A DNA stretch of 64,000 bases, from the NCBI GenBank assembly GCA_964583675.1, contig CAZOVH010000002.1, positions 2,602-66,601 on the forward strand, given 5' to 3'. Positions 1-9,947 of this stretch are shown here, piece after piece. This DNA is from an uncultured Candidatus Saccharibacteria bacterium (GTDB taxonomy: Bacteria > Patescibacteriota > Saccharimonadia > CAILAD01 > GCA-016700035). Every line of letters begins with the position of its first letter. Position 1 is the first letter of the stretch. A model generated the notes under the pieces. The model saw nothing but the letters and a program-made list of their open reading frames with translations, made no database searches and was not told the origin of the DNA. Made by a program: the position numbers and the translations under genes.

Positions 1-128
1 ATGATGCTTTCCAGCTCGGCAAAAAAATTGATGAACACAACCAAATGGTAGCTGAGCAGTGAGTAGTTAAGGATTGATCAATTCGAATAAGAGTAATATC
101 ATAACAGGAATAAGCAAGGTGAGGACCA

Positions 129-329
129 ATGAAAGACTATAAGGCAAATAAAAGAGTATGGGGAAGGATGTTTCTAGCCTTCTTGATAGTTCATATAATT
201 TTGCTATTTGGATTCAAAATTAGCACTGGAATTACTGAACTTATGATAATTATTAGCGGTATTATGTGGGCTATCAACGCTGTAAAAGCGAAAAGTAGTG
301 AAAAGCGGCAGTCAAATACTAAGGCCTAA
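129..329 (+). CDS. hypothetical small membrane protein (66 aa, one to two predicted TM helices)
   Basis: ORF with hydrophobic core FLAFLIVHIILLFGF and IIISGIMWAI; no recognisable family. Confidence 0.3.
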   Translation: MKDYKANKRVWGRMFLAFLIVHIILLFGFKISTGITELMIIISGIMWAINAVKAKSSEKRQSNTKA

Positions 330-359
330 AATTACTATACAGATGAATATGGGCTGTTC

Positions 360-956
360 TTAACTGCAATTTGCCTTTGCGATATTCGCATTCTTTGTAG
401 CTAGAAGTTGGGCGAGATTATTCTGATGTGTGGAATTTTCATATCCTTCTTCGTTTGCCCTATAACTCGAATCGCATAAGCCCCTACCACAATAGTATCC
501 TGCGATCCTTTGCATTTCTTTTTCATGGCGCGCATTTTCTTGTGCAACTGCTGCATTATAGCTATCAATATATGCTTGCTTTAAAGCCTCATTACAGCTT
601 GGGCCACTATTTGAAGCGCTAGATGAAGGAACCTGACTCTGGGTTGTGCTCTTTGGCGAGTTATTCTTATTTGTTTGAGGAGAAGATGCTGCTGGGCTGG
701 GACTTTCAGAGTTACTGGCGGTGGTGCTAGGAGATGCCAGGGGTGAAGCTGTGGTAGATTGTGAGGTTTCTACGGGTGTCGGCTTGTCATTATTTTTTGT
801 GGCGACTTTATTTGCATAGGCAAATCCTCCGATAGCGATAGCTATACCTAGTGTCAAGCCAACTAGCAGTTGAGCTTGTCCTTTGACTGCGGATAGGACC
901 TTAGCTTTCTTGCCGGCACTGTCAGGTTTTTGGACCGGTAGCTTATTCTCATTCAT
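360..956 (-). CDS. hypothetical membrane-anchored protein with Ser/Thr/Pro-rich low-complexity linker and Cys-containing C-terminal domain
   Basis: N-terminal TM segment LLVGLTLGIAIAIGGFAY followed by long S/T/P-rich region; no family recognised. Confidence 0.45.
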   Translation of the reverse strand: MNENKLPVQKPDSAGKKAKVLSAVKGQAQLLVGLTLGIAIAIGGFAYANKVATKNNDKPTPVETSQSTTASPLASPSTTASNSESPSPAASSPQTNKNNSPKSTTQSQVPSSSASNSGPSCNEALKQAYIDSYNAAVAQENARHEKEMQRIAGYYCGRGLCDSSYRANEEGYENSTHQNNLAQLLATKNANIAKANCS

Positions 957-963
957 ACACTAA

Positions 964-1308
964 TTATACATCAGCACTTGAACTCATACCTCCCAGAATT
1001 GGGAGAGGTATGATCTCCGTAACCGACTCATGCTTTTTTGGATATCCATACTTCATAAGTAGCTCTATAGCCCTCAAATCGCCATTGATTGCCTTGATAA
1101 CTACAGCTGACAATACTGCCTTCATAGGTGAACCTTCAAATAGCTGGCCATTCCTTAGATTACAGCTAAATGCCTCATCCTCAAGTAAGTTGGTGATATG
1201 TGTTGAGATATGGACCGTGCCCTTAGGTTTGCCATTAGGATTACCTGATACACCTGGTTGCCATTGAGTCTTAACGAGATGACTTGTTGTTGGTTGTGGG
1301 TTTGCCAT
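964..1308 (-). CDS. phage-related DUF5681-like protein (possible terminase small-subunit-like remnant)
   Basis: N-terminal motif QWQPGVSGNPNGKPKG typical of DUF5681/phage proteins; small size; sits beside repeats at window edge. Confidence 0.45.
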   Translation of the reverse strand: MANPQPTTSHLVKTQWQPGVSGNPNGKPKGTVHISTHITNLLEDEAFSCNLRNGQLFEGSPMKAVLSAVVIKAINGDLRAIELLMKYGYPKKHESVTEIIPLPILGGMSSSADV

Positions 1309-1451
1309 TGCGTGATATATGCCTGTTATTTATGTTCCTATTACTGTGGGGGAATAATGTAACAGGTTATTTACTCTAGAGAAGTTAATTAGAGTTTGAA
1401 TATCCCGTAAGATATAGTTCCAATTCGAAATAGTTTGGTTCACCAATGTAA

Positions 1452-1483: not shown

Positions 1484-1770
1484 GTTGCTCTCGTAGAGAG
1501 CCAGAACTCCGAAGGAGTTCGCTAAAGTCTCATACGAGATTTTATACAAAGTATTCTCCGTGGGATCACCATGAAAAACGTCCAAGCTCGTCTTGGGCTT
1601 TTTTCATGGTAGTTTTCTCGTGAAAACTGGACTCCGCAGGAGTTCGATAGATCAGTCCACGCACAGGAACTTGTTCCGAGCATGGCCGCAATCTGCACTC
1701 AGTATTCTCCGTGAGATCACCCATGTAAGCGCCGGAAATTAATTCCGACTCTCACATCGGAGAATACTTA
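1484..1770. repeat. tandem diverged repeat (two ~90-125 nt units) built of three hairpins plus conserved AGTATTCTCCGTGRGATCACC(C)ATG box; closing inverted copy CGGAGAATACT
   Basis: Units 1487-1573 and 1610-1725 align; stems differ in sequence but both copies stay perfectly palindromic (GCTCTC/GAGAGC vs GTTTTC/GAAAAC; ACTCCgaaGGAGT vs ACTCCgcaGGAGT). Confidence 0.55.
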
Positions 1771-1831: not shown

Positions 1832-2158
1832 TCAGCCGAGGCGGCGTTCGCCGTTGACGCTCACAAAGCGGATGTCACCTGAGTGACCTCCGTTCACACC
1901 GATCCGCTCTCCCAACTGGAAGATGCGATCGACGCGAGTGCTCATCACATCGGCGGTGATCTGGCCGAACTTGCGGCTGTTGGTCATCACCGAGACGCCG
2001 ATGATCTGCGACTCGGTCGCCCGGCGCCCCTTGGCGAGGACGAATGTCCAACGCGAGCTCTTGGTGCTGACGGTGATGACATCCCCGTCCTCGAGCGTGC
2101 CGAGGTCGAGCATGGTTGCATTCCGGTTGCCCGGAGCCATGGATGTTTGGGTACTCAT
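1832..2158 (-). CDS. hypothetical protein encoded in GC-rich, GC3-biased insert (likely horizontally acquired)
   Basis: Codons almost all end in G/C (CTC GAC CTC GGC ACG...), unlike flanking genes; own terminator; no family recognised. Confidence 0.5.
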   Translation of the reverse strand: MSTQTSMAPGNRNATMLDLGTLEDGDVITVSTKSSRWTFVLAKGRRATESQIIGVSVMTNSRKFGQITADVMSTRVDRIFQLGERIGVNGGHSGDIRFVSVNGERRLG

Positions 2159-2286: not shown

Positions 2287-2701
2287 TATGATTAAATATG
2301 CAGTATTCAATCTCGACAGACGGAGAAGCACCTTGTACGCGATGCATGATGAAGTCGAACTCTTGGTGGTGGTGATGGATTCCACGGCACCGGAAGAGAT
2401 GGTCGAAAAGATGCTCTGTGAATTCAGGTTCGTTCGAAAAATCGACATCACAAAGATCCTGGAGAAAGTCGAGAAGAAGCTCCTTCCGCAACTTGAGCGG
2501 GGGAGAGTTGGCCTCCTAACCCAGATTCAACTCAGCATCGCCATGAGGAAGGCAGTGCACCAGACGACCGGCTTCATACAGGACGTTGGCGAGAAAACAC
2601 GCGTAATCGTCATTGCGCCGCCCTACATCGACCGAATGAGTCTTGGGGTGAACCTCACAATGACGTGCAAGAAACACATAACGGTGATTGGCAAGAGCTA
2701 A
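2287..2701 (+). CDS. hypothetical protein (138 aa) divergent from 1832..2158
   Basis: ATG at 2287 after AT-rich promoter region; followed by terminator hairpin; no family recognised. Confidence 0.5.
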
Positions 2702-2708
2702 TGATCAC

Positions 2709-2737
2709 CCCGGCTTTTACCAGCCGGCTTTTTATTT
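2709..2737 (+). terminator. rho-independent terminator (CCGGCT-tttacc-AGCCGG-CTTTTTATTT)
   Basis: Hairpin plus T-run directly after stop of 2287..2701. Confidence 0.6.
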
Positions 2738-3610
2738 ACTAGCAGCTTTTACGCACTTTGCGCAGGTCGCTGTGTCGGCACAGTTCTCACACACCAACAC
2801 TAAATCGTTACAGCTCACGTTATCGCAGTTAATGTAACGACTGGTTTTGTCACCGCAGTGACTACATTCACCAATATCGACAGACTTATCGCTAAAACGT
2901 TGTTCCATACGACCGTCAAAAATGTAAAGTGAACCTTCCCAGGCGCCCTCATCACCGTATTTTTCACCGTATTTTACAATACCGCCATCAATTTGATATA
3001 CCTCATTGAAACCACGATTTTTCATGAGTGCTGAAAGAATTTCGCAACGCACGCCACCTGTGCAATAGGTGACAACTGGTTTATCCTTAAGCTCATCATA
3101 CTTATTTGACTCAATTTCTTTAACAAAATCGTGCGTGGTGCGAGTCTTTGGCACAACAGCGTCGCGAAACCGACCAACCGCTGCTTCATACGCATTGCGG
3201 CCATCAAAAAAGACCACGTCATCGCCACGCTCCTCGAGCAACTTATGCAGCGCCTCGGGCTTGAGATGCTTGCCACTACCAATAACACCTTGCGCGTCCA
3301 CCTGAACTTCCTCAGGCACGCCAAAAGCCACCAGCTCTGACTTTACCTTCACGCTAAGACGAGGGAACTCATTACCGCCACCCTCACTCCATTTGTACGT
3401 AATGCCACGAAATATCGCTGAGCGGTTCATCTCGCGCTTGTATTCTTTGAGGTTCTCTAAATCTCCGCCGAGAGTACCGTTGATGCCATGCTTACTCACG
3501 ATAATTCGACCCTTAAGGTTCAAACGACGACACAGCTCACGCTGCCAACGCATCGCCATCGTTGGGTCTTGAACCGGCACAAATTTATAGTAAAGTATGA
3601 CTTTTTTCAT
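2732..3610 (-). CDS. trhO: tRNA uridine(34) hydroxylase / rhodanese-related sulfurtransferase (UPF0176, YceA/TrhO family)
   Basis: Rhodanese-like core with CTGGVRCE active-site Cys and C-terminal Cys cluster; start taken at MKKVILYY, the upstream ORF extension looks spurious. Confidence 0.8.
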   Translation of the reverse strand: MKKVILYYKFVPVQDPTMAMRWQRELCRRLNLKGRIIVSKHGINGTLGGDLENLKEYKREMNRSAIFRGITYKWSEGGGNEFPRLSVKVKSELVAFGVPEEVQVDAQGVIGSGKHLKPEALHKLLEERGDDVVFFDGRNAYEAAVGRFRDAVVPKTRTTHDFVKEIESNKYDELKDKPVVTYCTGGVRCEILSALMKNRGFNEVYQIDGGIVKYGEKYGDEGAWEGSLYIFDGRMEQRFSDKSVDIGECSHCGDKTSRYINCDNVSCNDLVLVCENCADTATCAKCVKAASK

Positions 3611-3651
3611 CGAGCTCACATTATAGCTCAAAAACCTGCTAGGATACAGAT

Positions 3652-4353
3652 ATGATACGCGTTCGCAAAGCATCCGAACGAGGCCAGTTCGACCACGGTT
3701 GGCTAAAAACCGCGCACACCTTCTCGTTTGCGGGCTACTATGACCCACGCCACATGGGCTTTTCCGCATTGCGAGTGATTAACGAAGACCATATCGCTGG
3801 CGATGGTGGCTTTCCGACGCACGGACATCGGGATATGGAGATCATAACTTATATCATGAAAGGCGAGTTGGCGCACAAAGACAGTATCGGTAACGAGGCC
3901 ACAATTAAGGCTGGCGAAGTACAGTACATGACAGCTGGGAGCGGTGTGATGCACAGCGAATACAACACCTCTAAAACCGAGCCGGTACACTTACTGCAAA
4001 TCTGGCTGGAAGCCGACCAACCAAATCGAAAACCTGGCTATGTTCAAAAAGAATTCTCTCGAGAAGAAAAGCTCAACAAACTTTGCCCGATTGCAACACC
4101 AGCCGGAGAGACGGGCAGTATGCAAGTACACCAGTCTGTTTCGCTTTATGCTTCGGTGCTGGAATCAACGAAAAAAATTAGCTATACATCATCTAGTGAT
4201 CGCTGCCAGTGGGTACAAGTGATCAGTGGAGAGGTGAGCGTTAACGGCTCAAAGCTACTAGCGGGCGACGGGGCAGCTATTACTGAAGAGACAAAAATTA
4301 CGCTATCAGCCAGAAAAGATGCTGAATTTCTACTCTTTGATTTGCCTCAATAA
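3652..4353 (+). CDS. pirin family protein (cupin, quercetin 2,3-dioxygenase-like)
   Basis: N-terminal RG...GWL..HTFSF and HGHRDMEIITYI metal-binding His motif typical of pirins. Confidence 0.85.
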   Translation: MIRVRKASERGQFDHGWLKTAHTFSFAGYYDPRHMGFSALRVINEDHIAGDGGFPTHGHRDMEIITYIMKGELAHKDSIGNEATIKAGEVQYMTAGSGVMHSEYNTSKTEPVHLLQIWLEADQPNRKPGYVQKEFSREEKLNKLCPIATPAGETGSMQVHQSVSLYASVLESTKKISYTSSSDRCQWVQVISGEVSVNGSKLLAGDGAAITEETKITLSARKDAEFLLFDLPQ

Positions 4354-5749: not shown

Positions 5750-7537
5750 ATGAACGAACTTATTAAAATCCTCAAATTCTCCTCAAAACTCAAATGGTAC
5801 TACGCTGGCATCGCAATTTTGGTGGTAGTACTTGCTTTACTCAACCTCGTTGTTCCGTTTCTTACCAAGAACCTTGTGGACCTCATCACATCGTACTCGC
5901 AAGGAAACCCTGTTTCTTTCACCCAAGCACTTCCAGCTCTCAGTCTAATGCTCATAGCTTCACTCGTTGTAGCGCTACTTTCAAATGTGAATGGCTATCT
6001 GGGCGATATTATGTCGCAAAAGCTCAACACGCATCTTTCAACCAAGTACTACGAACACCTCATGAACTTGCCAATCGAATATTATGACTCTGAGCAAACA
6101 GGAAAAATCACCTCTCGCTTGGAGCGCTCAATTTCGAGCTTGTCACAACTTATGAATGCATTGGCAAACAATTTTGTGCAGTTCTTCCTTACTACTATCG
6201 TTACCCTAGTGGCGATCGCGATTTACTCATGGCCGGTTGCCTTACTGCTAGTCGTAATTTTTCCTACATATATCTGGATTACACATCTTTCAAGCGCTGC
6301 TTGGCAGAAAAAACAAGGCGACATCAATAAAACGCTCGATATCGCCAATGGCAGATTCGTTGAATCGATAGGGCAAGTGCGCGTAGTTAAGTCCTTTGTG
6401 CGCGAGATAGGCGAACTTGCCGACTTCCGCAGACGTCGCCAAAAGATCGAGTCTGTATCTCGCGAACAGTCCCGCGAGTGGCACGCCTATGACTTGGTGC
6501 GCCGGTTGGTATTGGGCGTAGTCTTTTTTGCTATTTTCGCCGTCATAGTCTGGCAGGCGCTCGAAGGTCAGTATTCAGTCGGTACCGCGGTCTTGCTTAT
6601 TACGCTAGCAAATCAAGCCCAATTCCCACTGTTTGGCTCCAGCTTTATTATTGAGGGTATCCAGCGAGCTCAAGCAGACAGTAAGGACTACTTTAAGGTA
6701 ATGGAGAAAAAGCCAACTATTCTCGATGAACCAGACGCAAAGACACTCAAGATCGACGGCGGAGAGGTGCGCTTTGAACACGTTTCGTTTGGCTATGAAA
6801 ACGGCAGCCAAGTCCTCAACGACGTGAGTTTTACTATTCCAGCCCATAGCAAAATTGCGCTTGTTGGTGAATCTGGAGAAGGTAAGTCTACCCTCGCGAA
6901 TCTCATTGTGCGCTTTTACGAAGCCAATGCTGGGACCATCACTATCGACGGCACACCAATCACCGATGTAACCCAAGCCAGCCTGCGCAAGGGGATAGGT
7001 ATTGTGTTCCAGGACCCTTCACTATTTTCTGGGACTATCGAAGACAATATTACCTACGGACTCAACCGTCGATACACACAAGAAGAGCTAGGAGAAGCCG
7101 CCAAGCTTGCGAATGCTGCAGATTTTATCGCCAAGCTAGAAAAAGGCTACAAAACCCAAGTGGGCGAGCGAGGCATTAAACTCTCTGGTGGCCAAAAACA
7201 ACGCATTATTATCGCCCGCGCCCTGCTGAAGAATCCTCCAATCCTGATACTAGACGAAGCTACCAGCTCGCTAGATGCTAAAGCCGAATCACAAGTGCAG
7301 CAAGCTCTGGAGCGTCTGATGAAGGGGCGTACCACTATCATTATCGCGCACCGACTGAGTACGATCTCGCACGTCGACATGATTATTGGTTTGCGCGGCG
7401 GCAAAATTGCCGAATCAGGCAGTCCCGATGAGCTGGCACACAAAAAGGGTGGTATTTACGCAGAGCTCTTGGAGCTCCAGACAGCTGGCGCCAAAGTAGC
7501 CAAGAAGAAGCTACAAAAATTTGATATCGCTGCCTAG
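5750..7537 (+). CDS. ABC transporter ATP-binding/permease fusion protein (MsbA-like exporter)
   Basis: Six-TM N-domain; Walker A GESGEGKST, signature LSGGQKQR, Walker B ILILDEATS. Confidence 0.9.
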   Translation: MNELIKILKFSSKLKWYYAGIAILVVVLALLNLVVPFLTKNLVDLITSYSQGNPVSFTQALPALSLMLIASLVVALLSNVNGYLGDIMSQKLNTHLSTKYYEHLMNLPIEYYDSEQTGKITSRLERSISSLSQLMNALANNFVQFFLTTIVTLVAIAIYSWPVALLLVVIFPTYIWITHLSSAAWQKKQGDINKTLDIANGRFVESIGQVRVVKSFVREIGELADFRRRRQKIESVSREQSREWHAYDLVRRLVLGVVFFAIFAVIVWQALEGQYSVGTAVLLITLANQAQFPLFGSSFIIEGIQRAQADSKDYFKVMEKKPTILDEPDAKTLKIDGGEVRFEHVSFGYENGSQVLNDVSFTIPAHSKIALVGESGEGKSTLANLIVRFYEANAGTITIDGTPITDVTQASLRKGIGIVFQDPSLFSGTIEDNITYGLNRRYTQEELGEAAKLANAADFIAKLEKGYKTQVGERGIKLSGGQKQRIIIARALLKNPPILILDEATSSLDAKAESQVQQALERLMKGRTTIIIAHRLSTISHVDMIIGLRGGKIAESGSPDELAHKKGGIYAELLELQTAGAKVAKKKLQKFDIAA

Positions 7538-7613
7538 CATAAGTACTTTGAGATTGTCTGAAATTAGGTCTACAATACTACTAGACAATAACTAAGTGTA
7601 GGAGAATCTCATT

Positions 7614-8081
7614 ATGGCAAAAGCCAAATCCAGCGACCTAATTTCTTTGCTGGAACCTTATTTCACCAAACAAGCACCATTCCAGATACCAAAAAAGTGG
7701 CGTGAGAATCTCGTCAATTGGATCCCGTGGATCAATCTCGTAATTGGAATTCTGCTCTTGCCAGCAGTTTTAGTGGTGGTCGGACTCGGCACCATTGTTG
7801 GCGTTGTAGCCCCAACCGTTGGAGTAAGTACAGGATTGTTCTACTGGTTTGGCATTATTCTCGCCGCTGCTACAATTGCACTACTCTTTGTTACATTCCC
7901 GGGCTTGCGAGCTCGTAAACTTGCAGCTTGGAAACTTGTTTTTTGGGCAGACATCATCTACTTCTTCTACGGTATCGTATCGGCGGTTTCCACTGGAGAT
8001 CTCATGGGGATCGTTACGCAGTTTATCGGCACCGCCGCTGGGCTCTATGTGCTCTTCCAAATTAAGAGCTACTACAAATAA
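7614..8081 (+). CDS. hypothetical integral membrane protein (4 TM)
   Basis: Hydrophobic segments throughout; followed by terminator. Confidence 0.5.
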   Translation: MAKAKSSDLISLLEPYFTKQAPFQIPKKWRENLVNWIPWINLVIGILLLPAVLVVVGLGTIVGVVAPTVGVSTGLFYWFGIILAAATIALLFVTFPGLRARKLAAWKLVFWADIIYFFYGIVSAVSTGDLMGIVTQFIGTAAGLYVLFQIKSYYK

Positions 8082-8104
8082 TATTGGGCGTCCAAACAAT
8101 ACAG

Positions 8105-8130
8105 CACCCCACGACAAACGGGGTGTTTTA
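8105..8130 (+). terminator. rho-independent terminator (CACCCC-loop-GGGGTG-TTTTA)
   Basis: Read directly downstream of 7614..8081. Confidence 0.6.
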
Positions 8131-8148
8131 TTGTAAAATAGCTCGGTT

Positions 8149-9219
8149 ATGAAAAAAGTCCTTAAAACTAACCACGGAGACGTGCAGTTGCCCGCATTTT
8201 TTCCAGATGCAACGCGGGCAACCATTAAGTCAGTGGATACACAGGCTGTACTGGCTACCCACACGCCTGGTATGGTCATGAACACGTATCACCTAGCTAA
8301 TCTCGGTCTTGTCGATATCATCTCCAAACAGGGCGGGCTACACACTTTTACTGGCTGGAACCGTCCTATCATCACCGACTCTGGTGGCTTTCAAGCCATG
8401 AGCCTGGTGCGCGAATTTAATACCGGCGGCCGCTTTACTGAGGACGGGGTGATTTTTCAGGATGCTGCTGGTAACAAATTGGAACTGACCCCTGAGAGCT
8501 GCATCGACTACCAACTCAAGCTTGGTAGCGACATCATTATGATTTTAGATGATTGTACAAAGCCGGATATGCCGATGCCCGAACAACTCAAAAGCGTGGA
8601 GCGAACCATCCGCTGGGCGAAGCGGGCTCGCATCCACTTTGATAAGGCTACAAAAAACATGCAAGCGAAGCCTCTTCTCTTTAGTATTGTGCAGGGTGGG
8701 GCAGACAGAGAGCTACGCCGCACCTGTGCTGTAGAGCTTACAAAGCTAGGTTTTGACGGGTACGCCTTTGGTGGATTTCCAATAAATGAGGCAGGCGAGT
8801 TACAGATTGAGACCATGCAGGCAGTAGTAGACGATACACCAGCCGAGGCATTCAAATACGCCATGGGTGTTGGTACACCCGATCAAATTGTTAAAAGTGT
8901 GGCCATGGGCTACGACTTGTTTGACGTAGTTATTCCAACCCGAGAAGCACGTCATCGCAAACTGTTTGTGTGGAAAGGTAAGCCTGAAGATTTAGATCTC
9001 AATGGTGATTTTTATTCGAGCATTACCATGAAGAATCTGGCTCTCCAAGAAGACTCAGGTCCTATTGATCCTCACTGTGACTGCCACACCTGCCAAAACT
9101 ACTCTCGTGCCTACGTGCATGCCCTATTCCGCGCCGACCAATCCGTTGCCGGACAGCTGGCATCGATTCACAACCTACGCTTCTACTCGAAACTTATGGA
9201 AGCCCAACAAGCCTTATGA
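8149..9219 (+). CDS. tgt: queuine tRNA-ribosyltransferase
   Basis: DSGGFQ catalytic motif and CDCHTC zinc-binding motif. Confidence 0.9.
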   Translation: MKKVLKTNHGDVQLPAFFPDATRATIKSVDTQAVLATHTPGMVMNTYHLANLGLVDIISKQGGLHTFTGWNRPIITDSGGFQAMSLVREFNTGGRFTEDGVIFQDAAGNKLELTPESCIDYQLKLGSDIIMILDDCTKPDMPMPEQLKSVERTIRWAKRARIHFDKATKNMQAKPLLFSIVQGGADRELRRTCAVELTKLGFDGYAFGGFPINEAGELQIETMQAVVDDTPAEAFKYAMGVGTPDQIVKSVAMGYDLFDVVIPTREARHRKLFVWKGKPEDLDLNGDFYSSITMKNLALQEDSGPIDPHCDCHTCQNYSRAYVHALFRADQSVAGQLASIHNLRFYSKLMEAQQAL

Positions 9220-9947
9220 TCTGCTCCCTCCATCTGCACTACTCCTGATCCATCACATCTAAGATCAGGAGTGTAAAATATATGATCCGGTCTCGTATAG
9301 ATCGAGTCGATATTTGGCTTTGTGGCCTCAGATGACACATCTCTCACGTGTTTGGCTTTTAAATTTTGGAGAAATTGCTCTGGGTGATTGTGGTTCCAGT
9401 CTCCGCACATCACGAGTTTCGAATCCTCAAGTCCGCTAAGCGCATCATTGATATGATTTGAGAAAACCCTTAAGTCAGTCGCTTCGTATCTTAACCCAAA
9501 GGAATGAACGGGTAGCAAATGTGTATTTAATACATAAATACCATTTTCCATTTTAAGCAGCTGATACCCCTTGGGATGCTTTTCGGCTGGCCGTCCATCC
9601 TGAAAAAATAAGTCAAACGTAGGCTGCTCATAATAGGCCTCCGTATAATTTTGTGCTGCTAACCTTGAAAGCACAGAGATGCCTAACTTTTTCCCTAGCT
9701 CAATGTGTGAATTTGAAAGCTGAAAAACAGATACATGCGCGTAGTTTAGCTCCAGAGCTATTTGCTCAGCCTGATTGCCACCATCCCAGCAATGCACTTC
9801 TTGCAAACAAACAATATCCGCATCAATGTCATGTAACACACGAATAAACTGCCCTATGTCTAGTCTAGGGTCATCAACTGCACTTGGTTGCACATAACCC
9901 CCACCGATATTCCAAGTAACTATTTTTACCAAATTTAGCCCTCCCAT
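9183..9947 (-). CDS. endonuclease/exonuclease/phosphatase (EEP) family protein
   Basis: N-terminal WN.GGG, LQEV, GDWN motifs of EEP fold; start ATG overlaps upstream gene by 13 nt. Confidence 0.7.
   Translation of the reverse strand: MGGLNLVKIVTWNIGGGYVQPSAVDDPRLDIGQFIRVLHDIDADIVCLQEVHCWDGGNQAEQIALELNYAHVSVFQLSNSHIELGKKLGISVLSRLAAQNYTEAYYEQPTFDLFFQDGRPAEKHPKGYQLLKMENGIYVLNTHLLPVHSFGLRYEATDLRVFSNHINDALSGLEDSKLVMCGDWNHNHPEQFLQNLKAKHVRDVSSEATKPNIDSIYTRPDHIFYTPDLRCDGSGVVQMEGADHKACWASISFE

Follow-up and report, generated by a model that had tools for sequence, protein, structure and literature searches.

Hairpin-bearing units closed by copies of a tRNA-Glu tail suggest an accretion array at an integration hotspot of Saccharibacteria

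Near one end of a 64-kb stretch of DNA from an uncultured Candidatus Saccharibacteria bacterium (the window, that is, all 64,000 nucleotides analysed here), positions 1484-1770 hold two diverged units with hairpins, a common box of 21-24 nt, an inverted partial copy of this box and a terminator between the units. What are these units, and how did they come to lie one behind the other? A sequence-only reading had proposed a structured non-coding RNA. We find that the box closing each unit is a copy of a tRNA-Glu tail. The explanation that we favour, with a probability of about 55%, is an accretion array of small insertion modules that bear attachment sites, built up at a tRNA-Glu integration hotspot.

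Both units are present in place, with all the features that had been described for them. From left to right, the locus contains:

1442-1485, both strands: terminator-like palindrome 0, ACCAATGTAAGGCGCCGAC / GTCGGCGTTTTGCATTGGT (inverted-repeat search)
1487-1501, plus strand: unit 1 hairpin 1, GCTCTC-gta-GAGAGC (read in the sequence, fold, covariation)
1504-1520, plus strand: unit 1 hairpin 2, GAACTCC-gaa-GGAGTTC, a sequence-conserved palindrome (repeat finder, pattern scan)
1524-1545, plus strand: unit 1 third hairpin, AAAGTCTCA-tacg-..., a short variant (fold)
1550-1573, plus strand: box 1, a tRNA-tail copy and also a recombination junction in sister strains
1568-1610, both strands: bidirectional terminator palindrome 2, ACCATGAAAAACGTCCAAG / CTTGGGCTTTTTTCATGGT (palindrome and terminator scoring)
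1611-1628, plus strand: unit 2 hairpin 1, AGTTTTC-tcgt-GAAAACT, with the core GTTTTC-tcgt-GAAAAC at 1612-1627 (fold)
1629-1645, plus strand: unit 2 hairpin 2, GGACTCC-gca-GGAGTTC (repeat finder, pattern scan)
1655-1686, plus strand: unit 2 hairpin 3, subfamily A (outer and inner stems covary and enclose unpaired C, R, A / A, A, which are conserved)
1701-1725, plus strand: box 2, with the tRNA-tail copy at 1704-1721
1746-1769, minus strand: inverted partial box copy, CGGAGAATACT at 1758-1768, extended by TCTCA (inverted-repeat search)

The first hairpin had been said to differ in sequence between the units while staying complementary, and so it reads at 1487-1501 and 1612-1627. In the second, the stem is kept and the loop changes from gaa to gca, again as described: its pattern, ACTCCGNAGGAGTTCG, is found at 1506-1521 and 1631-1646, two matches in 64 kb against 0.03 expected from shuffles, within a repeat (1506-1524 and 1631-1649) that is 89% identical according to the repeat finder. 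The box, AGTATTCTCCGTGRGATCACC, stands at 1550-1570 and 1701-1721 with 95% identity between its copies (repeat finder); its pattern occurs twice in the 64-kb window and never in 100 shuffles (0.00 expected). Downstream of unit 2, positions 1758-1768 are perfectly complementary to 1701-1711 over 11 nt, 46 nt apart, and close the expected 68-nt stem-loop. The GGAGAATAC arm of this inverted copy forms, in relatives such as L143, a fourth hairpin with the start of the box.

Between the units, the palindrome at 1568-1610 has arms of 19 nt with 89% complementarity, and terminator scoring picks it up on both strands, which bears out the element of A-run, hairpin and T-run recognized there before. Palindrome 0, absent from the earlier list, has the same composition of A-run, GC stem and T-run, and carries a third TCACCAATG motif. 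The fold of the whole region, proposed as a check, is far more stable than that of shuffled sequence and equally good on the two strands (z = -7.1 and -7.2).

The origin of the box becomes clear outside the window. In longer versions of the same contig (L001 and L011, extended leftward and found through contigs with the exact neighbouring proteins), ARAGORN places a tRNA-Glu(CUC) at L001 9611-9685, just beyond the window's left end; the gene ends with ...CGGAGTTCGATTCTCCGTGGGATCACCA. Positions 1553-1571 of box 1 reproduce its last 19 nt at 19/19 positions (ATTCTCCGTGGGATCACCA) and in the same orientation, comprising the 3' part of the T-loop, the 3' strand of the T-stem, the 3' strand of the acceptor, the discriminator and CCA. 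In box 2 the copy at 1704-1721, ATTCTCCGTGAGATCACC, matches at 17/18 positions, with an inserted C and a G to A change relative to the resident tRNA. As a copied tRNA tail, the conserved 24-nt box is not an RNA motif in its own right. The other four tRNAs of the window have neither tail copies nor units behind them. The exact box with its AGT prefix was found in none of the viral contigs or GTDB genomes searched, and the plain box in none of the viral contigs.

Two further observations concern the tRNA-Glu gene itself. A 14-nt copy of its 5' end and leader (CTACTCGGTCCCAT) lies ~78 nt upstream (L001 ~9690-9780; also in L153), and because of this copy the 5' side of the gene may hold a repeat or scar too. 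On the other side, the terminator of tRNA-Glu genes nearly always has its stem extended to pair (C)ACCA with TGGT(G), in most loci from L017 to L135 as in the window, even in unit-free genomes. This pairing is more than an intrinsic terminator needs and may relate to 3'-end processing or to recognition of an attachment site.

Between the tRNA-Glu gene and window position 1446 lies an integrated element of ~3.75 kb (L001 ~5873-9619), which enters the window with its right-hand part:

1-1446, minus strand: right-hand part of the element (66-aa TM protein, 198-aa protein, DUF5681 protein)
1437-1446, plus strand: attR-type junction, GGTTCACCAA, whose core common with the tRNA end is TCACCAA, 1440-1446

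Beyond the window's left end, its cargo comprises a TM2 protein, a 61-aa ORF and a large serine recombinase with Resolvase and Recombinase domains, split by a stop in the window's contig (409 + 103 aa). Strain L013 is without the element: there, the 3' end of the tRNA (GGGATCACCA) is directly joined to ATGTAAGG (...ATGTAAGGCGCC), which corresponds to 1437-1446, and palindrome 0 is the tRNA-Glu terminator, pairing with the ACCA end. In seven metagenome contigs (L003-L008, L010), the identical upstream region of DUF5681 runs instead into the recombinase gene at its 3' end, and homology of the L003-L010 set to the window stops at 1445/1446. This junction is the attP of a circular or tandem form. 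Three marks of an att core are found here: a repeat of the tail of an upstream tRNA in the same orientation, recombinase-bearing DNA between the two, and empty and attP forms. Most metagenome contigs with an identical DUF5681 protein show the attP junction, suggesting that the element is active elsewhere. The recombinase ORF reads across attP. With the element free or in tandem, the protein has 539 aa; once the element is integrated, 12 aa read antisense to tRNA-Glu stand in for the last 38.

In L018, L034, L116 and L121, large serine recombinases related to this one lie directly beside tRNA-Glu. Elements of this kind share only TCACCA(A), ~7 bp, with the tRNA and are without hairpins 1 to 4 (hp1-hp4) at their ends; they therefore do not explain the tail copies of 18-24 nt. 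A search of a phage database gave no match to phage DNA for 1300-2300. Upstream of the tRNA gene, the window's contig (L001 9998-12345) also has Replic_Relax, MazE/PemK and an IS1595 transposase.

Sister strains mark a second junction, at the box. In L012 and L015, from 98% identical strains, homology to the window begins at 1566/1570, inside box 1; upstream of this breakpoint stands a different insertion, ending with ...GTTCACCA or ...ACGGTAGTTCACCA. Either box 1 was used there as an attachment site or unit 1 was never present, and under both readings the alignments put the crossover point at the end of the box. The insertion in L012 (6594-8224) encodes an Erm/KsgA-like rRNA adenine methyltransferase of 297 aa that starts with MKASIKYSQNFIKD, possibly a cargo of the macrolide-resistance type in a Saccharibacteria genome.

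On the other side, the array is bordered by an island and the gene trhO:

1776-2709, strand not assigned: island of ~0.95 kb with p108 and p119, ending in GATCACC at 2703-2709 (outer boundary inferred)
1832-2158, minus strand: p108, a gene of 63% GC, 108 aa (ORF)
2342-2701, plus strand: p119 (ORF)
2710-2727, strand not assigned: terminator directly after GATCACC and before trhO (terminator scan)

The heptamer GATCACC may mark the outermost old junction. Relatives at the locus were traced through homologues of TrhO. In L140-142, a species at 80% TrhO identity, trhO is followed by a 40-nt terminator and a convergent tRNA-Glu, and no unit is present. In L143, a relative at 92%, tRNA-Glu(CUC) and a terminator precede a single homologue of unit 1, rearranged and with its box truncated, behind which stands a homologue of p108; unit 2 and the 3.75 kb element are both missing. 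In an 87% relative, L139, a single unit with hp3 of subfamily A precedes other genes or cargo. The JGI contig L153 starts with the window's terminator 0, hp1 and hp2, continues with a fuller body (hp3 and a T-stem-like hp4) and ends with a different downstream terminator. The single units of L153 and L139 differ, and in L012 the break lies at box 1. From the tail of tRNA-Glu to trhO, the locus is thus hypervariable; among the relatives compared, no clean pair with and without a unit was found at near-identity.

The units belong to a family. A scan for the tail, with one genome per species, returned mostly MAGs of Candidatus Saccharibacteria. In roughly one fifth of the Saccharibacteria genomes sampled, a tRNA-Glu (UUC or CUC) is followed by one to three tail copies that are not part of a tRNA. 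The order within a unit is fixed: terminator palindrome, hp1, hp2, one or two variable hairpins (hp3 and hp4 subfamilies) and the tail copy. The palindrome has an A-run and a T-run, and its stem includes ACCA...TGGT; hp1 usually ends in a C-GNA-G triloop; hp2 reads (C)GAACTCC-GNA-GGAGTTCG, at times with a nested hairpin at its tip. In place of the short third hairpin of unit 1, relatives L153 and L146 have hp3 plus the T-arm-like hp4.

A covariance model of hp1 and hp2 matches only at positions of this tRNA-tail unit architecture, including unit 1 (1483-1527, 50.5 bits) and unit 2 (1608-1652, 41.7 bits) of the window. With a model of the full unit, unit 2 scores 98 bits (1610-1722) and unit 1 scores 62 bits, against ~22 bits for a bare tRNA tail; 20 units, in 16 of 100 sources, exceed 30 bits. 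About 80% of related genomes have no unit, and between close relatives the number of units varies. Neighbours in an array are poorer matches to each other than to units of other loci in 7/7 cases: unit 2 of the window, for example, is 0.72 identical to the third unit of L113 and 0.55 identical to unit 1. A recent tandem duplication of units was rejected, as array neighbours are never closest relatives (7/7).

Arrays also take up larger DNA. In L053, 2.3 kb of cargo separates two modules of unit plus box; in L145-L148 and L019, several element ends (GGTCACCA/GGTTCACCA) precede one terminator plus unit. Different large elements stand upstream of the same unit across strains: serine-recombinase mini-elements, an insertion bearing Mrr, and an element with VirD4-like protein, reverse transcriptase and Replic_Relax. 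In L146 (2000-10700), an insertion at the tRNA-Glu tail encodes DUF3800, a VirD4/TraG-like coupling protein, a reverse transcriptase and Replic_Relax.

The pairing pattern is conserved in related genomes, where hp1 and hp3 keep their stems through compensatory changes. For hp1, 25 cells show a change on both sides versus 8.3 in shuffles (0/500), and slid controls are at most 57% paired. In subfamily A of hp3, 94.7% of the cells are paired, 8/11 pairs are compensatory (0/500 shuffles) and slid controls reach at most 42%; its five unpaired positions are invariant or nearly so. Being conserved in sequence, hp2 is uninformative on compensation. The hairpins are real structures under structural constraint and not chance palindromes. 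The sequence-only reading had further held that compensatory change points to structure at the RNA level rather than to protein-binding palindromes. Nested insertions at the hp2 tip leave the basal stem intact, which favours folding within one strand over a duplex site of fixed spacing. The strand asymmetry is weak. Across 25 unit bodies, the tRNA-sense strand folds at -36.0 versus -33.9 kcal/mol and better in 16/25 (p = 0.076), and the G.T to A.C count on the plus (tRNA-sense) strand is 14 vs 5 in an alignment that was fitted to that strand.

How would such an array arise? Each unit may have been inserted as a small module, of which a stump may be all that is left, made up of a terminator palindrome, a hairpin body and a tRNA-Glu tail copy that belongs to it. 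When the resident tail recombines at its TCACCA end, the incoming terminator would come to stand behind the tRNA and the older tail copy and terminator would be pushed outward, so that newer insertions would lie nearer to the tRNA. The order that results would be tRNA, 3.75 kb element, unit 1, unit 2, GC-rich island and the original flank by trhO, and the tail copies could still serve as secondary attachment sites. The hairpins probably act in cis within their modules, folding within one strand. We infer this entry as modules and this order of events from four traits, which together favour serial insertion: neighbouring units are not closest relatives, box 2 differs from the resident tail, cargo lies between modules, and the elements upstream vary. 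The divergence of box 2 also fits a tail copy that arrived with its unit.

No recombinase tied to the units themselves was found in the loci compared, nor any free, circular or excised unit. A tblastn search with E. coli XerD, a weak probe, gave no tyrosine recombinase near units and matched only two unit-less Peribacteria loci. Recombination between two attB-like sites is not what one would expect of a serine integrase. Differential loss from an old array, instead of repeated gain, also fits the distribution of units. Somewhat bolder, and to our mind unlikely, is an undescribed family of ~100-190 nt structured modules, specific to tRNA-Glu loci of Saccharibacteria/Patescibacteria: a mobile mini-cassette, dependent on a recombinase and recognized as folded single-stranded nucleic acid, or a cargo small RNA tagged with a tRNA tail. 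A mini-cassette would amount to an integron-like capture platform built on a tRNA tail.

The proposal of a structured non-coding RNA deserves to be weighed against the accretion array. The units would be transcribed in the tRNA sense, for instance by read-through, fold into hp1-hp4 and carry a tRNA-like 3' tail that may be processed or protected. A functional RNA would show just what hp1 and hp3 show, strong compensatory change together with invariant unpaired bases in hp3; the nested inserts at the hp2 tip keep the stem, G.T prevails over A.C on the plus strand, and each unit is followed by its own terminator. Moreover, in L146, L153 and L143, hp4 pairs GGAGA with TCTCC of the box, forming a T-stem-like helix beside the acceptor strand. 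However, a sigma-70 scan, which may not fit Saccharibacteria promoters, found no promoter-like sites above chance in the arrays of the window or L113, and every unit has bidirectional terminators directly before and after it, too close to leave space for a promoter. It is therefore unlikely that the units are transcribed independently, and an RNA of theirs would have to come from read-through of the tRNA. Between the strands, the difference in fold energy is not significant. No unit has a 5' acceptor strand, hence no cloverleaf with a paired acceptor stem, and for this reason the tail is unable to form a tRNA-like minihelix; ARAGORN finds no tRNA or tmRNA in the units, only the true tRNA-Glu, and the Rfam tRNA model rejects them. 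A covariance search, suggested earlier as a check, yielded no family for the units: with Rfam 15, at gathering and permissive thresholds, the window and eight other loci gave only tRNAs or unrelated hairpins below threshold. The tail usually tracks the neighbouring tRNA, and with units missing from ~80% of related genomes and variable in copy number, we consider a non-coding RNA unlikely. What stands of the proposal is that the hairpins are selected, folded structures; the free-standing RNA gene is not supported, given the tRNA-Glu origin of the box, the recombination junctions at its ends, the enclosing terminators, the want of promoter and Rfam match, the weak strand asymmetry, and a presence in ~20% of genomes. 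Small coding ORFs were rejected as well: the minus-strand ATG of the box lies in different frames (1-nt indel), and the ORFs are not conserved.

The same hairpins could serve as recombination sites in folded single-stranded DNA, like integron attC or the CTX-phage attP hairpin, in a cassette array anchored at the tRNA. Conservation of structure above sequence, the invariant extrahelical or mismatched bases of hp3 and the weak strand bias agree with this idea, as do the C-GNA-G triloops in most hp1 and hp2 loops, such triloops being exceptionally stable in DNA. The arrays repeat periodically, cargo separates modules both in L053 and in the window, and the ACCA of every tail pairs with TGGT at the base of the next palindrome. 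Yet most units are free of cargo, neither integron-type nor other tyrosine recombinases turned up nearby with the weak XerD probe, GTTRRRY/RYYYAAC cores are lacking, and the only recombinases seen are large serine enzymes, which act on duplex DNA; folded sites of this kind seem distinctly improbable. Only a little less credit is due to inert scars, that is, decaying leftovers of old integrations whose hairpins are terminators and chance palindromes without function. Unit 1 of the window and the unit of L143 do look like shortened or rearranged versions of the fuller unit of L153, and boxes are degenerate in several units (L055, L094, L129), but random deletion scars would vary in size and content, whereas the four-hairpin order recurs with compensatory substitutions across many divergent genomes. 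Finally, degenerate pseudogenes from tandem duplication of the tRNA-Glu gene come close to being refuted. Their 3' 18-24 nt are identical to tRNA-Glu, hp2 contains GGAGTTCGA, the 5' half of the T-arm, and in L118 a unit stands between tRNA-Glu(UUC) and tRNA-Glu(CUC); against this, nothing apart from the tail and GTTCGA resembles the tRNA, neither ARAGORN nor Rfam detects one, the 5' acceptor strand is missing, and the number and sizes of the hairpins are unlike a cloverleaf. A related idea, that the unit is a T-arm split by an insertion (GGAGTTCGA in hp2, ATTCTCCG in the box), is weakened by L113 (third unit), L134 and L118, which keep only GTTCGA.

The accretion array has counterparts in known systems. 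As Williams reportedly described in 2002, direct repeats of tRNA 3' ends flank genomic islands and prophages, in tandem accretion arrays at one tRNA gene. The present locus is alike in its same-orientation tail copies downstream of an intact gene, its insert junctions exactly at the copies, its several insertions stacked at one tRNA and its occupied, empty and attP forms. It differs in that the stacked items are of 120-190 nt, mostly gene-free, with a conserved covarying four-hairpin body, and in that the recombinase is a large serine enzyme with ~7 bp in common, not a tyrosine integrase with a long identity block. In the literature, we found nothing specific on integration at tRNA-Glu in Saccharibacteria or on tandem att arrays. 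The hotspot itself is ordinary in kind; what is new is the variant, with its conserved module of hairpins.

Integron cassette arrays resemble the units in their structured, site-like modules, with structure conserved over sequence, conserved unpaired bases and occasional cargo. Unlike them, the array here is anchored at a tRNA, has no IntI, attI or R/L core boxes, and consists mostly of empty modules: no IntI-type recombinase was found nearby, with the low-sensitivity XerD probe, and no RYYYAAC/GTTRRRY cores in the unit sequences. Elements integrated at dif by XerCD (IMEX; CTX/TLC/RS1 arrays) likewise insert repeatedly at one short site, regenerating a copy of it, and include small non-autonomous satellites among larger elements; here the target is a tRNA tail instead of dif, with no known link to Xer. 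From tRNA-like 3' modules (tmRNA, YrlA, mascRNA, viral tRNA-like structures), with which they share a T-stem-like hairpin, the 3' acceptor strand and ACCA, the units differ by having no 5' acceptor strand or acceptor helix and no covariance-model match. Their palindromes are like intrinsic (bidirectional) terminators in A-run, GC stem and T-run, except that the stems also pair the ACCA of the tRNA. The unit body falls outside the known families tested: it is not a tRNA, not an Rfam RNA and not an attC site. It behaves most like the small satellites or empty cassettes of dif/IMEX and integron arrays, a resemblance and not a membership.

Saccharibacteria are epibionts with reduced genomes, whose routes of gene gain are poorly known. 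One tRNA-Glu tail is a shared landing site here, for serine-recombinase mini-elements, conjugative-type elements, the insertion with the Erm-like methyltransferase and GC-rich foreign genes. Should the module turn out to act as a folded site of recombination or as a functional RNA, it would constitute a new cis element or RNA class in the candidate phyla radiation and, once proven functional, could offer a handle for genetic tools in bacteria that are hard to manipulate. For annotation, the locus is a warning: repeats of tRNA tails can pass for the "conserved boxes" of non-coding RNA candidates.

Lastly, we note some properties of the flank. At 63% GC, p108 stands out from a genome of ~45% GC and had no match in Pfam, PHROG or plasmid searches; its homologue in L143 is 85% identical in nucleotides. 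Behind the units of L094, L129 and L056 the DNA is GC-rich as well, and such DNA could have been acquired from high-GC (actinobacterial) hosts. The longest trhO ORF (2732-3769, minus strand, 345 aa) overlaps the start of the pirin gene; the true start is probably the internal MKKVILYYKF, giving a protein of 292 aa (2732-3610), as in the gene calls of related contigs.
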